A stretch of DNA of 64,000 bases from a virus (taxonomy: Duplodnaviria > Caudoviricetes). The translations under genes and the position numbers were made by a program. How positions within the stretch are numbered: position 1 is the stretch's first letter; each line of letters begins with the position of its first letter. The stretch lies in the IMG/VR virus record IMGVR_UViG_3300024259_000011, one strand, 5' to 3'. The notes below the pieces were generated by a model. The model saw nothing but the letters and a program-made list of their open reading frames with translations. It had not been told where the DNA came from and did not search any database. This document shows, piece after piece, positions 32,490-44,612 of this stretch.

Positions 32490-32862
32490 CTATCGTCGCT
32501 CCTTGTAGTAAAACGCCAGAGGGTAAAAGAACCGAACCAAAAATCTCCAAACTATCTAAGGCGGTTTTAGCACTGCTGTTCCAATATTCTAAATCATCAG
32601 GATCACCCATCTCTTCATACTGCTGTACTATCGTCATGTTTGGTTCTATTTCGCCTCTTATTTTTTCCAACGGCACTTTTACTATTGTCGGACTCTCATA
32701 ACTATTGGCATAGTCTTTTGCGGTTTGGAAATCTCCCCAATATGTTTCAACTGCTGTGAAGTTATCAATCATTTCGTGGGCGAAATCCTTTGAGGTTCCG
32801 TGATATAAGTAACCTTGTTCTTCTTTCAAATACTCTCGCCAATTTTCAAGTAGGTCTTTCAT
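32473..32862 (-). CDS. Putative ADP-ribosyltransferase-fold protein with N-terminal ENW tag
   Basis: LYHGTS...Y...AKDYA pattern; start at MKDLLENW. Confidence 0.5.
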   Translation of the reverse strand: MKDLLENWREYLKEEQGYLYHGTSKDFAHEMIDNFTAVETYWGDFQTAKDYANSYESPTIVKVPLEKIRGEIEPNMTIVQQYEEMGDPDDLEYWNSSAKTALDSLEIFGSVLLPSGVLLQGATIDETPT

Positions 32863-33425
32863 TTTTTTAAGCCTTCGGTTCCGTACCCTCCGAGAGACCA
32901 TGAGCCGTTCATTATATGACCAACATGGTGAACATCATCAAACCCCATGGCATGACCAAGTTCGTGTTCTAAGATTCTTTCCGAATCACCCCATGCTGAC
33001 ATTATCTCAATCTTTGCTTTAAAGATTCGACCGGTATCATTATTGCGCCAAGTTTTAGTTGTGCCCAAGTGAGTTCCCATCTTAAAGCCTTGGCTCGGGA
33101 TATCGATCATTATTGTATTATATGGCACCTTTCCGCGTGCGCAGCCATAATCGTCGGAGGAGGCTTGCTTAATGTTGCCAAACTCATAACCTAATCGTTT
33201 CCAATAGCCGACAGCCCTTTCTATTCTATTCATGCTCACCGGACCTCGATGACATAATATGATGTCTGGAGGGTAACGCCATGAACCGCTGCGAGTCGGA
33301 ACATTTGATGCGAAAGTTTTTGCAGGACACACCCACGTTTCGGGAGGGGGTGATAGCTGGTCTACCGTGTGTGCCGTACGGGGAAACGGGTATGCTATAG
33401 CCGTCCAGAGAAGCAATGCTTTCAT
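32859..33425 (-). CDS. Matrixin-like (M10) metalloprotease, probably exported
   Basis: HELGHAMGFDDVH (HExxHxxGxxxxH) followed by a Met-turn; hydrophobic N-terminus. Confidence 0.75.
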   Translation of the reverse strand: MKALLLWTAIAYPFPRTAHTVDQLSPPPETWVCPAKTFASNVPTRSGSWRYPPDIILCHRGPVSMNRIERAVGYWKRLGYEFGNIKQASSDDYGCARGKVPYNTIMIDIPSQGFKMGTHLGTTKTWRNNDTGRIFKAKIEIMSAWGDSERILEHELGHAMGFDDVHHVGHIMNGSWSLGGYGTEGLKK

Positions 33426-33775: not shown

Positions 33776-34384
33776 TTATAGCAGCCCCTCGACCCAGCCT
33801 TGAATGGTTCCTTCGTTCCAGCCATTAAGCCCATGTTGTAAAACCATGTTGCGGTCAATAATAACTAGCGTTGGCCAACTTGTCACAGGATATCCATCTT
33901 CCAACGGCTCAGTCAAATCAATCATTGCGCGTGAGCCGGCGAGAACAGGAAGCGTAATGCCATGGGTCGCTGCCCAATCCTCTAAGTCATTTAGTTCAAC
34001 TGTGTCTCGCGATGCGTCTTCAATAAGGATTGTAATCCAAACAAAGTTTTCATCTCCGTACGCCTGAACCCAGTGGTCGCCTACTGGCGCAATCATGTTG
34101 CAGGGTCCACACCACATTGCTGATAAATCTACAACAATAACTTTTCCGTAATGCTGATATAGGTCCGACTGTTCGCCATACTGATCCATCAACTCAAAGT
34201 TGCAAGGGTTGTTTCCAATGTCATGAGCACAACTCTCCCATGTTGCCCATGGGTACGGCTCAAGTGGCACCGGGACTGTTGGCTGTCCAATGCCTACGAT
34301 GGCACTGTCATCTGTTATTGTGACCTCAGCAGGTCCACATGCGCCACAGCCTATGGCAAACATTAATAGCAATAATCTAATCAT
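33776..34384 (-). CDS. TlpA-like thioredoxin-fold lipoprotein
   Basis: Lipobox-like IGCGAC, DLSAMWCGPC and WPTLVIIDR. Confidence 0.8.
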   Translation of the reverse strand: MIRLLLLMFAIGCGACGPAEVTITDDSAIVGIGQPTVPVPLEPYPWATWESCAHDIGNNPCNFELMDQYGEQSDLYQHYGKVIVVDLSAMWCGPCNMIAPVGDHWVQAYGDENFVWITILIEDASRDTVELNDLEDWAATHGITLPVLAGSRAMIDLTEPLEDGYPVTSWPTLVIIDRNMVLQHGLNGWNEGTIQGWVEGLL

Positions 34385-34395
34385 CTTTTCTTCTC

Positions 34396-35025
34396 CTATG
34401 GGTTGGGGGTTCCCAACATAATCTTTAATTCATTTTCATGTCCTTGAATAGTTCTAGTGTACCAGCCGTCGATGCCCGGGTATTTACCATCCGGGTGAGG
34501 TCCGAGCCATGTAATCGGTTTTGAGGCGCCCAGTGTTTTCTGTACAACTTCCGGGTCGTCCACATAAGGGGTGTCATGATATTTCAACATAACATGTGCG
34601 ATGCCTTTAGACATCTCTGCATATGTGCCGGGTGAACGCAGCATATCTGCTGTCTTTGCTTTGTAAGCGTCGATAGACGTGCGTTTACCATCGTGTCCAG
34701 ATGCGGACAGTTTTAGTCCGGCAGGTTTGCTTTTAGCAACGCGAAGAGCATCAGGTTCCGGGTCATCGTCAATATCAATAGCTGACCAATGGTCTGCATC
34801 GCCGGGGATGTCTGAGGGGCTTTTATAATCGAAGTTGCCGCCGATGTCCTTATATGCGTTAGCAATCAGCGCGTGTAACTCATCGGTAATATCGACGTTC
34901 TCGGGATCACTTGACATGTCACTAGTAGGAATCTCTTCCCAGTTACCCTTGTCGTGTCCATAGTCAGCCCAAGTTTCTTCATTAACAAACTTGCGCCAAT
35001 TTTCCATGATGAGTTGGTGTTTCAT
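34396..35025 (-). CDS. Hypothetical protein with N-terminal ENW tag
   Basis: Begins MKHQLIMENWRKFVNEE; remainder unassigned. Confidence 0.7.
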   Translation of the reverse strand: MKHQLIMENWRKFVNEETWADYGHDKGNWEEIPTSDMSSDPENVDITDELHALIANAYKDIGGNFDYKSPSDIPGDADHWSAIDIDDDPEPDALRVAKSKPAGLKLSASGHDGKRTSIDAYKAKTADMLRSPGTYAEMSKGIAHVMLKYHDTPYVDDPEVVQKTLGASKPITWLGPHPDGKYPGIDGWYTRTIQGHENELKIMLGTPNP

Positions 35026-35279
35026 TTTACTTCGTCTACAGACTTATCCATTTCATCGTCAAAGTCAGGTCTGATCCAAACCATTGAATTGAACTGTGCC
35101 CTTTTTCTGTCAAGTAATAGAGCACCTTGTGGTTTCACAAGTTCTCCCTGAATCTCAACACCTTCAAAGTCAATCTCTGTTTTCTGTTTATAAACAACCT
35201 TGGGCTCATTTTCGTCAGCGTGTACCGGGGAAGATGATACAAGGAGTGCAAAGGTTAATAATATTTTACCACTCGCCAT
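35022..35279 (-). CDS. cglF: CglF/GltF-like adventurous gliding motility protein
   Basis: Signal peptide plus KTEIDFEGVEIQGELVKPQG...RKRAQFNSMVWIRPDFDDEMDKSVDEV, matching from recall the myxobacterial CglF pattern KTxIDF.dv.IeGEL.KP.G...F..li..R..F..El.KS.d.L. Confidence 0.7.
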   Translation of the reverse strand: MASGKILLTFALLVSSSPVHADENEPKVVYKQKTEIDFEGVEIQGELVKPQGALLLDRKRAQFNSMVWIRPDFDDEMDKSVDEVK

Positions 35280-35502
35280 CGAAGCCTGCTCCTGCGGCTA
35301 GCGCTGCCGCTAGTCTATCGACATCATCATCGCTCATATGAGCGGTAGCGTCGATAGGTTCTTCCAAAGACATGATTTGGTCATTAGTAAGTTCAGGCTC
35401 AGTGTCGTCCTCTGGTGGTGGGACATCGCCCGGGTCGTCATCGCGCTTGTATTTTCCTTCCATAAACCGTCTCCAGTTCTCCATTATTAGTTTTTGATCC
35501 AT
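35266..35502 (-). CDS. Small acidic protein with N-terminal ENW tag
   Basis: MDQKLIMENWRRFMEG after GGAGG RBS. Confidence 0.7.
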   Translation of the reverse strand: MDQKLIMENWRRFMEGKYKRDDDPGDVPPPEDDTEPELTNDQIMSLEEPIDATAHMSDDDVDRLAAALAAGAGFDGEW

Positions 35503-35589
35503 TTTAGTCTCCTCCGTACGTGACCCAAAGCTCGATGGCTTCTTTATATTCATAGATTTCTTCAAGCGGCATGCTGGCTAGTGCTCGAT

Positions 35590-35949
35590 CTAAATGCCTC
35601 TCATCTTCCACCAGCAGTACCTCTTTCTATTAAGTAAATAGTATGGATGATCCTCATTTGCATATGCTTCTCTCTCAAAAGGATTTTCGCGATATGCTTT
35701 GGCTCCGTCTCTGTACCGAACTAAGCCGATTAGGTGGAACAGTCCATAAAGAATCCACTGTCCCACAAACAAAAGTTCTAATTGCTGTTGGTAATGAATG
35801 GTCTCATGTCGTTTTGTGGTATCTGATAGCTCTCCGCGACACCAGACCCAAAACCCAAAACTAATTGCCCATATATTAATAGGCGCTAGCTTAGAAAGCC
35901 AAGCTGGTATCTTGCTGTTTTCAATAAATATCGGTTTCCATAATCTCAT
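35590..35949 (-). CDS. Small zincin-like protein
   Basis: RHETIHYQQ and NPFEREAY motifs. Confidence 0.65.
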   Translation of the reverse strand: MRLWKPIFIENSKIPAWLSKLAPINIWAISFGFWVWCRGELSDTTKRHETIHYQQQLELLFVGQWILYGLFHLIGLVRYRDGAKAYRENPFEREAYANEDHPYYLLNRKRYCWWKMRGI

Positions 35950-36758: not shown

Positions 36759-36787
36759 ATTATAGTTCACACGACCGTCAAAATCAA
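36759..36787 (-). promoter_or_regulatory. Sigma70-type promoter
   Basis: TTGATT-N17-TATAAT. Confidence 0.6.
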
Positions 36788-37080: not shown

Positions 37081-37106
37081 AAAAAACCCGCCGAAGCGGG
37101 TTTTTT
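37081..37106. terminator. Bidirectional intrinsic terminator
   Basis: AAAAAACCCGC-CGAA-GCGGGTTTTTT; C(UUCG)G tetraloop on the minus strand. Confidence 0.9.
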
Positions 37107-43293: not shown

Positions 43294-43515
43294 TTACGAT
43301 GCATCGGTAATGACCTTCTTAGCCTTTGTCTTCTTTGTAGTCGTAGTCTTCTTAGTTGTAATCGTCTTGCCAGTTCCAATGCCATCAGTTGTACCCGTGG
43401 TAGTAGTGGTGGTAGTGGTTGTGGTATCTGAAATATTTTCAATAATCGTATCCACTTTGGCAGCCGCTGCATCAATCTGTGCCATCAGCCTACGTCGTTT
43501 CCATGTCTTACCCAT
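43294..43515 (-). CDS. Thr/Lys-rich low-complexity protein
   Basis: MGKTWKRRRL..., poly-Thr, TKKT tail; TAATG coupling. Confidence 0.55.
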   Translation of the reverse strand: MGKTWKRRRLMAQIDAAAAKVDTIIENISDTTTTTTTTTTGTTDGIGTGKTITTKKTTTTKKTKAKKVITDAS

Positions 43516-44612
43516 TATTTCGCCCACCTTTTAATAAGCCTTTCGTACAACTTCTCTTGCCGGCGCTGGAAAGTCTCTTGAAGATCGTCGGTGTCTTCCT
43601 CATCATCTTCTGCTTCCTCAATAGTCCCGGCTGAACGATGCTTACTAACATCGGGGGATGAACTTTCGTCCAACTCGACGCACTTGCCGGCAACCATCTT
43701 CTTGCCTTGCTTTTCGCACTGCTGTTTTGCACGGTCACCACCTAGACGACTGCCCTTAGCAGCTTCATCAACGGTTTCCTCGTCTTCGTCTTGGCTTTCC
43801 TTTACGGCTTCTTTAGACCCGCACTTGACTTGGGCGCCGGCTTTATCATAGCACTTCTGGCTGGTCTTGGGATCGCGGTGAGGTGGTGCCTTTCCGCCGG
43901 CGTATGCCTCATCAACGGTCTCCTCATCTTCACCTTCTTCTAGGTTCTGACCGGGACTGCCATCGGAAGCGTTGCCCTGACGGTGACCCTGTTGGTTGTT
44001 GTCACGGGAATCCTTGCGGTCGCCCTGACCTTCTTCTTGGACATCCTCTTCTTCCTCTTCTTCGTTAACGGCACCACCGGTTGTGATGGTAGCGTTCTTC
44101 ATGATCTCAGCAACAATGCTTTTGACCAGTTTTTCATGTTCAGACATGGTAATATACTCCTTGTTAATATAATTAGTTTCATGCAAATTGTTACGCCTTT
44201 TTGATTTGTACTGGTCTTCCCAGTCTCTCATAACCATGGATGCGTAAGCTTCCTGTTCCATTTTTCTTAAGTGTCCGTCCGTCTGCGCGTAGCCATCTCC
44301 CGTCTCTCCCATCTTTTCTGGAGAGAGGTCGCCTCGGCAGTTCTGCGTGTGATGAACCAACTCATGCGCCAATGAGCGCAATAAATCTTTTGGGTGTCGC
44401 CCATCTACATAGAGGGTGACTGTATAATTATCAGGTTGATAGTGAGCGGTCTTACCCAGCGGATCATCAGCGTTGCTATCATCAGATGCATATACAATTT
44501 GAGCCGGCTTATCAAATCCTAAATACTCTTGGGCATAGGGATAGAAACGCTTCACCATATTGGTTAAAGCGGACATATCTTGCCCGGAGTCATTTTGGAT
44601 ATCGCAACTCAT
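43515..44612 (-). CDS. Zincin-like domain plus long acidic tail
   Basis: LLRSLAHELVHHTQ and EQEAY; tail punctuated by VNE, VQE, LEE, VDE and LQE. Confidence 0.7.
   Translation of the reverse strand: MSCDIQNDSGQDMSALTNMVKRFYPYAQEYLGFDKPAQIVYASDDSNADDPLGKTAHYQPDNYTVTLYVDGRHPKDLLRSLAHELVHHTQNCRGDLSPEKMGETGDGYAQTDGHLRKMEQEAYASMVMRDWEDQYKSKRRNNLHETNYINKEYITMSEHEKLVKSIVAEIMKNATITTGGAVNEEEEEEDVQEEGQGDRKDSRDNNQQGHRQGNASDGSPGQNLEEGEDEETVDEAYAGGKAPPHRDPKTSQKCYDKAGAQVKCGSKEAVKESQDEDEETVDEAAKGSRLGGDRAKQQCEKQGKKMVAGKCVELDESSSPDVSKHRSAGTIEEAEDDEEDTDDLQETFQRRQEKLYERLIKRWAK

Follow-up and report, generated by a model that had tools for sequence, protein, structure and literature searches.

A homologue of the Myxococcota gliding protein GltF/CglF encoded by a widespread marine T4-like phage

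We analysed a 64,000-nucleotide stretch of viral DNA (IMG/VR record IMGVR_UViG_3300024259_000011, referred to here as the window) and, within it, an open reading frame (ORF) for an 85-amino-acid (aa) protein that, by its sequence, size, leader and predicted shape, is a homologue of GltF/CglF, a small periplasmic linker protein in the envelope-spanning Glt gliding machine of myxobacteria such as Myxococcus xanthus. The reading that we favour, with a moderate degree of confidence, is that the phage carries a functional GltF captured from Myxococcota, which would take the place of the host's own GltF and replace or top up a labile subunit. Taken more broadly, the findings suggest that the phage interferes with or maintains the Glt machine of its host. 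That the ORF is a real gene (gltF hereafter) and no chance ORF is confirmed by the number of its homologues (1402 at E<=0.001 in a set of 5.8 billion proteins, mostly from marine metagenomes, with 537 clusters found in a representative search for gltF-like proteins), by an intact gltF copy in 47 viral loci and by the selection acting on it, which is described below.

Membership of the GltF/CglF family and conservation of the protein

The NCBIfam model NF033764, 'adventurous gliding motility protein CglF', matches the phage protein with an E-value of 8e-15 and 54.7 bits over profile positions 17-87 of 88, and the protein is 74% identical over its full length to a GltF encoded between gltE and gltG in a marine Myxococcota metagenome-assembled genome (MAG). 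Both results uphold a sequence-only reading of this DNA in which the CglF/GltF family had been named, and the 85-aa ORF of exported type, its predicted leader and the motif pattern quoted in that reading are all present as described. The equivalog cut-off of NF033764 is 90 bits, and the phage protein falls below it, as does the operon-embedded GltF of the marine Myxococcota MAG L069 (58.7 bits). In the GTDB order of the nearest MAG the family was found in 58 of the 61 sampled genomes, and none of its members reached 90 bits. Since cellular GltFs of that order are also sub-threshold, the low score of the phage protein is a lineage effect and no sign of decay, and the cut-off, judging from these sequences, separates Myxococcus-type sequences and not the GltF/CglF family. 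Scans of the 85-aa protein against Pfam and PHROGs gave no match.

CglF and GltF are one protein (PMC4488436). In M. xanthus it is MXAN_4868, which is 89 aa long and signal-peptide positive, is needed for gliding, is recruited to focal adhesions and is required for the formation of GltD clusters (PMC3169522); transfer of CglF between M. xanthus cells by TraAB outer-membrane exchange is described only as likely (PMC3325183). The phage protein is like M. xanthus GltF in its length (~85-90 aa), its type I signal peptide, its lack of a Pfam domain, its possession of the motif YK.KTEIDF..G.L.KP...FN....R.DF..E...SV.EVK and its predicted shape of an extended chain with a C-terminal helix. It is unlike M. 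xanthus GltF in the sub-threshold score that it has in common with the marine cellular GltFs, in the methionine at position 66 (M66) and in reading FNSMVWIR in place of FNPLIKLR. The phage gene also differs from M. xanthus gltF in being the sole glt gene, and, with no gltE or gltG beside it, it cannot count as a positional orthologue.

The leader reads MASGKILLTFALLVSSSPVHA followed by DE, with a lysine at position 5, a hydrophobic core, a VHA-DE junction and no cysteine, hence no lipobox, as far as can be read from the letters. An equivalent hydrophobic N-terminal leader ending in A-x-A is present in all 72 viral and cellular copies compared. The mature part of the protein runs YKQKTEIDFEGVEIQGELVKPQG ... 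FNSMVWIR ... DFDDEMDKSVDEVK. In the AlphaFold2 (AF2) monomer, a helix at residues 3-14 (the signal peptide) is followed by an extended chain and a second helix at residues 73-84; the model has a predicted local distance difference test score (pLDDT) of 73.

Residues Y30, K31, T34, E35, I36, D37, F38, G45, P50, F63, N64 and R70 do not vary among the 72 viral and cellular copies, nor do P50 and F73 among 55 wider representatives; the residues that are invariant in cells are all likewise invariant in phages. The most conserved block, at aa 30-50, was mapped through the register of the hidden Markov model, with the start annotation corrected, to beta-strand 94-111 (147-aa numbering) of the published M. 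xanthus model (PMC11761067). In that AlphaFold model GltF is largely unstructured and bridges the periplasmic and outer-membrane modules: a strand is paired with the beta-sheet in GltG's TonB-like C-terminal domain, the C-terminal helix lies in a crevice of GltC and the chain between the two touches GltD (PMC11761067). In the phage protein these modelled elements fall on the two blocks with the strongest conservation, the strand on aa 30-50 and the helix on aa 72-85.

Position 66, in the middle segment, is the only column where phages and cells share no residue, being M in 25 of 25 distinct marine viral sequences and L in 17 of 17 distinct cellular ones. In the 12-row subclade of viral copies to which the window belongs (support 99/93), S65, V67, W68 and I69 are derived as well, and the basal phage copies read FNPMIKLR, differing from the cellular motif by one residue. 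The 14 C-terminal residues of the window protein are those of the marine MAG L048, and phages and cells of higher guanine-plus-cytosine (GC) content have in common a different version of the C-terminal helix.

Phage residence, origin and host

We compared 47 viral loci with 20 loci of species-representative genomes, using searches with the nine proteins of one cellular locus. At the 20 loci of cellular MAGs, gltF lies within a full operon, and the order is OMP-OMP-gltC-TPR-gltE-gltF-gltG-gltH in 20 of 20 (OMP, outer-membrane protein; TPR, tetratricopeptide repeat). The matches in this operon are two OMP_myx_plus barrels, GltC (E 9e-72), a 1033-aa TPR protein, GltE (7e-45), GltF (4e-16), GltG (1.5e-102) and CglE/GltH (1e-29). 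In the 47 viral contigs, the two assemblies L071 and L072 and the window, gltF is the sole glt gene, and searches of four phage genomes of at least 94% completeness turned up no GltG-type C-terminal domain and no GltC.

Over the 64 kb of the window, long ORFs lie essentially all on one strand, accompanied by four transfer RNAs (tRNAs) and one transfer-messenger RNA (tmRNA), and there are PhoH and MoxR-like ATPase genes of phage families. About 30 IMG/VR contigs have 8-16 further genes in common with the window in similar order, the closest relative being G013, a syntenic record of 141 kb with 70-89% protein identity. A T4-type Gp23 major capsid protein is encoded by G013 and by two CheckV-complete relatives, G001 (196 kb) and G002 (203 kb), with E-values of about 1e-60, and the latter two also have a large terminase. 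A near-identical copy of the gltF region is present in each of 20 metagenome runs of marine or seawater origin, which come from at least 15 studies. On the strength of the synteny, the relatives with Gp23 and terminase, and the 20 runs, the window belongs to a widespread uncultured marine T4-like phage, with a genome of roughly 200 kb. The location of the genes on one strand, the relatives with Gp23 and terminase and the finding of no glt-operon gene other than gltF also bear out the earlier proposal that the gene is phage-encoded. Neither megablast with the 12 kb around gltF nor tblastn with the protein gave a match among 50,697 GenBank phage records, and the neighbouring phage genes have no close cultured relative, with only 34-42% local matches to Flavobacterium and Synechococcus phages.

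Purifying selection on phage gltF is strong. Across 28 distinct gene sequences from marine viruses the mean proportion of differing synonymous sites (pS) is 0.79, at which synonymous sites are saturated, and that of nonsynonymous sites (pN) is 0.14; the median ratio of nonsynonymous to synonymous substitution rates (dN/dS) among the marine viral copies is 0.07 where dS is finite. GC content at third codon positions (GC3) is 0.31 in the window copy compared with 0.88 in the nearest cellular gene, so that the gene has fully taken on phage composition. The marine MAG gltF, which is part of a single gltA-H operon, differs from the phage gene in this respect (GC3 0.6-0.9), in its longer signal peptide and in always lying between gltE and gltG, while its product is up to 86% identical to those of related phage copies in the 58-aa core. 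The signal peptide and the full mature length are retained in all phage copies, and GltF is 60-77% identical among phages compared with 25-60% for the flanking phage genes. These sequence features argue that gltF is a long-held, functional phage gene, and its cellular origin, phage residence, purifying selection and shifted composition are those of a host-derived auxiliary gene (a moron or auxiliary metabolic gene, AMG).

In a maximum-likelihood tree built on the 58-aa core, 37 marine viral rows, among them the subclade of the window, form one clade (95/83) that is sister to marine small-genome Myxococcota MAGs (UBA2957, UBA796, SAT32 and XB_MAG53; 3.5-4.2 Mb), the branch joining the marine viral and marine MAG clades being weak (85/0). 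A second viral clade, with a GC content of 51-57%, has a mean identity of 71% (maximum 81%) to higher-GC cells versus 63% to marine cells, whereas the marine phage copies are nearest to marine cells (mean 70-76%, maximum 86%). A constraint to one viral clade was rejected by the approximately unbiased (AU) test with a p-value of 0.009, the group having been defined after seeing the tree and a few branches being long. Copies from an unrelated phage of 316 kb also fall in the marine viral clade; this phage lacks Gp23 and has no genes in common with the window, and its gltF lies ~1 kb before the terminase (E 2.5e-63) and portal genes. Judged from the AU test and the unrelated 316-kb phage, gltF has been exchanged repeatedly, and the sequences are best explained by capture of the gene long ago from marine small-genome Myxococcota.

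The tmRNA provides an independent clue to the host. The tags of marine MAG tmRNAs are ANNNNHFAAAAVA, ANNNNHFAATAVA and ANNNDNFAAAAVA, and the prefix ANNNNHF is common to the phage and the marine MAGs G008 and G011. Of 61 genomes sampled from the order, only three have the ANNNNHF coding pattern, two of them being G008 and G011, by which its specificity is partly established, and for that order only. Tags of the relatives' tmRNAs follow the pattern ANNN[NLT]HF[ED][SQ](V)RLAA (L003-L007, L010, L014-L016, L019, L021, L029, L036 and L075). Together, gltF and the tmRNA tag point to small-genome marine (planktonic) Myxococcota as hosts, and the sister clade in the tree and the recurring tag prefix are thereby in line with the Myxococcota host that had been suggested from the sequence. 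Beyond the first seven residues of the phage tag, which equal the marine MAG prefix, the tmRNA is diverged and AT-rich. When positions 24001-64000 of the window were compared with five MAG genomes, the matches were tRNA ends, tmRNA ends and gltF only. A 25-nt exact match in G011 (C88) was considered as a spacer of clustered regularly interspaced short palindromic repeats (CRISPR) and rejected, being low-complexity Ala/Glu-rich coding sequence without a repeat array.

Within the phage family, gltF is a cassette in a plastic, non-structural region and not a core gene. The family, as marked by the protein encoded at 43515-44612, is very large: a single-protein search for phage relatives found one locus, and an alignment-based search found at least 562 IMG/VR stretches. 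Among 31 family loci with at least 8 kb on each side of this marker, gltF is within reach in only six. It is absent from the closest relative, G013, both at the syntenic site and in the whole 141-kb record, in which a tmRNA of the same kind is present. Its position relative to conserved blocks varies among relatives, and the region around it encodes NUDIX, kinase-like, SNase, thioredoxin-like lipoprotein, thioesterase and FKBP proteins.

Proposed role and competing readings

If phage GltF serves as a substitute subunit, it would be synthesised during infection and exported through Sec, with cleavage following VHA, and the mature protein, an extended peptide, would then stand in for host GltF within the complex of the host. 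The conserved strand near its N terminus would pair with GltG's TonB-like C-terminal domain, the C-terminal helix, which matches the host lineage, would lie in the crevice of GltC, and the segment between them would run along GltD. The labile host subunit would in this way be replaced or topped up once host gene expression is shut off, and the coupling of the inner-membrane motor to the outer-membrane module would be kept, or slightly retuned, until lysis. Replacement or topping up is favoured by the retention of both interfaces and of every invariant residue and by the match of the helix to the host lineage.

Several points weigh against this substitution. The prediction of partner binding comes from AlphaFold modelling of the M. 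xanthus proteins in a published study and not from experiment. The link to the host is indirect, with no CRISPR match between window positions 24001-64000 and the five MAG genomes, and the GC content of the phage (46%) is well under that of the MAGs (52-61%). There was no RNA run among the runs listed as containing the gltF region. The accessory status of the gene, as seen in G013 and in the 6 of 31 loci, implies that it is dispensable for infection as such. Finally, the fixed L66M change in the phage clade and the reworked FNSMVWIR in the subclade of the window make it conceivable that the function is altered rather than host-like.

These fixed changes of the middle segment keep alive a second reading, which we consider possible but doubtful, that phage GltF is a dominant-negative or exclusion factor that binds the host partners and locks the outer-membrane module or uncouples it from the motor. 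It would thereby stop surface transport or gliding, save proton-motive force, or immobilise or hide an outer-membrane Glt component that serves as receptor (superinfection exclusion). M66 is fixed in the marine viral copies, and S65, V67, W68 and I69 lie in the segment modelled along GltD, but the basal phage copies with FNPMIKLR are a single residue away from the cellular motif. A decoy needs only one interface, whereas in phage GltF strong purifying selection acts on both predicted interfaces and on all the invariant residues. Phages are known in general to block motility organelles used as receptors, or to mask receptors, and exclusion and moron genes are often accessory genes in variable regions, as gltF is. 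Its neighbours here include genes for other proteins that are predicted to be exported, one a thioredoxin-like lipoprotein and one carrying a signal peptide and an HExxH motif. A related proposal, which we put forward just as tentatively, is that GltF, the single small linker between the inner-membrane motor side and the outer-membrane side of the Glt machine, has been captured several times by jumbo phages of aquatic Myxococcota that are unrelated to one another, and that its slightly altered version (M66; S65 and W68 in the subclade of the window) acts as a lineage-matched clamp controlling Glt. If true, surface transport might be stopped, or superinfection via an outer-membrane Glt component blocked, and the protein would be the first viral effector against a bacterial focal-adhesion-type motor.

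A target other than Glt is improbable. The strand would then be a general ligand of TonB-like C-terminal domains and act on another TonB/Tol-type system, possibly in a non-myxobacterial host, as might be suspected from the CglF-like segments in unrelated large proteins (VWA/sortase-target-like and MuiA-like, and once before an AgmX/PglI-type domain) and from the wider phage family, most of whose members lack gltF. This is difficult to reconcile with the 74-86% full-length similarity to operon-embedded GltF, which extends to the marine-lineage-specific C-terminal helix, with the match of the tmRNA tag prefix to the same MAGs, and with the location of all the examined cellular full-length homologues in glt operons. 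That the contig is cellular or chimeric, or gltF a recent functionless hitch-hiker, is scarcely credible. MAG and IMG/VR bins can be contaminated and no transcript support was found among the runs listed, but the region is near-identical in the 20 runs from at least 15 studies, the 47 viral loci have an intact copy of gltF only, relatives carry Gp23, terminase and portal genes, GC3 is fully phage-like and dN/dS is about 0.07.

Substitution of a host subunit would have precedents among marine T4-like phages, which carry host-derived auxiliary genes for subunits of host complexes, for example psbA and psbD in cyanophages. Like those genes, gltF encodes a host-like subunit that is under purifying selection and lineage-matched, and that plausibly replaces a labile subunit after shut-off. 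Unlike those of psbA and psbD, the complex of gltF is an envelope-spanning mechanical transducer and no metabolic or photosynthetic enzyme, and its product must be exported. Among phage proteins that disable or mask surface machines serving as receptors, Tip and Aqs1 of Pseudomonas phages act on type IV pili, and T5 Llp and Cor act on FhuA. If the substitution reading holds, phage GltF would be another small accessory phage protein acting on an envelope or motility machine of the host; it is unlike these four, which have no homology to the target subunit, in being a near-copy of a structural subunit. A host-derived auxiliary gene in a lytic phage is a known phenomenon, and an envelope-spanning mechanical transducer as its target was not found described. 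The earlier remark that no phage cglF had been described stands, as the literature library searched yielded no paper on a phage-encoded Glt component.

Through this gene, hosts can be proposed from sequence for a family of uncultured marine T4-like phages that is both large and widespread, and we know of no cultured phage for small-genome planktonic Myxococcota. That unrelated phages keep one subunit under strong selection implies that a Glt/Nfs-type envelope machine is of importance to Myxococcota living in the plankton. To call the host system one of 'gliding motility' may be too narrow; in the planktonic genomes, of 3.5-4 Mb, the operon is a single gltA-H cluster and belongs to the ancestral Glt/Nfs type. 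In addition, no Glt component is as poorly understood as GltF, knowledge of which comes mainly from the AlphaFold model. The natural phage variants, with both predicted interfaces kept and the middle segment changed, represent ready-made probes of that model.

Gene neighbourhood and further observations

Table 1. Positions in the window of gltF, its predicted parts and nearby features
Feature	Position	Strand	Basis or remark
gltF/cglF-like gene	35022..35279	(-)	85 aa + stop; ORF list, NF033764 match, selection
Predicted type I signal peptide, aa 1-21	35217..35279	(-)	cleavage after VHA; read from sequence
Most conserved block, aa 30-50 (YK.KTEIDFEG...GELVKP)	35130..35192	(-)	corresponds to GltF strand modelled on GltG C-terminal domain
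Middle motif, aa 63-70	35070..35093	(-)	FNSMVWIR in the phage subclade of the window; FNPLIKLR in cells
Predicted C-terminal helix, aa 72-85 (DFDDEMDKSVDEVK)	35025..35066	(-)	corresponds to GltF helix modelled in GltC crevice; AF2
AGGAG ribosome-binding site (Shine-Dalgarno)	35289..35293	(-)	9 nt 5' of gltF ATG; sequence reading
Upstream ORF, 99 aa, no family	35266..35565	(-)	3' end shares 14 nt with gltF start
Downstream ORF, 209 aa, no family	34396..35025	(-)	ATG overlaps gltF stop (ATGA, 35022-35025)
Sigma-70-like promoter candidate, TTGATT-17-TATAAT	36759..36787	(-)	head of the gltF gene string; consensus match only
Strong hairpin terminator	37081..37106	(-)	11 pairs, U-tract; closes preceding unit
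Phage tmRNA, tag ANNNNHFDSVRLAA	37765..38136	(-)	ARAGORN

The overlaps at both ends of gltF place it in a tightly packed string of co-oriented genes (Table 1). The suggestion that gltF is an early gene is weak, because the promoter candidate is a consensus match and sigma-70-like sites show no excess in the region when compared with shuffled sequence. Both ORFs that flank gltF start with a similar peptide, M..LIMENWR+F..E, in place of which GltF has a Sec leader. Further upstream, 35590-35949 (-) encodes a hydrophobic protein of 119 aa, without a Pfam family but with an HETIH (HExxH-like) motif, which adjoins gltF in several relatives (L001:8391, L006:2332, L010:10249 and L075:18223-18645) and is retained in place in a relative that lacks gltF. 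Just downstream of gltF, 33776-34384 (-) encodes a thioredoxin/AhpC-like protein that is predicted to be exported and has a lipobox-like leader (ending FAIGC), and 32859-33425 (-) encodes a predicted exported protein of 188 aa that combines a signal peptide with the zinc-peptidase motif HELGH. From these sequences, the gltF gene string may be a set of periplasm-directed effectors.

The family marker protein at 43515-44612 (-) has an invariant SHELVHH...GYAQ..H.R motif and is metallopeptidase-like (HExxHH); its only matches in cultured phages are local (42%), to Flavobacterium phages, where it is annotated as nicotinamide mononucleotide (NMN) adenylyltransferase. The T4 late-promoter motif TATAAATA occurs in 11 copies in the window compared with ~2 expected, and some copies sit just outside gene starts (40756, 51291 and 26655). 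Ten of the 11 are on the + strand, opposite the genes, and for that reason the motif was dropped as evidence on timing.

A complete gltA-H operon is present in the MAGs of the GTDB genome contigs L052, L056, L058, L061 and L066, which have a GC content of 60-70% and bear NCBI titles that name Klebsiella pneumoniae, Enterobacterales, Enterobacteriaceae, Rickettsiales or Pseudomonadota; they are very probably mislabelled Myxococcota bins. CglF-like segments were further observed within large proteins, namely P0157 (636 aa), P0228 (766 aa), P0219 (655 aa), P0140, P0148 and P0160, where they follow a region resembling VWA or 'marine sortase target' proteins or, in P0219, precede a MuiA-like domain. 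In P0157 the CglF-like segment (466-526) stands directly before an AgmX/PglI C-terminal domain (548-633), a fusion that gives a hint of contact between the strand and the C-terminal domain. The GltF motif may, on the basis of these sequences, be a portable binding module.

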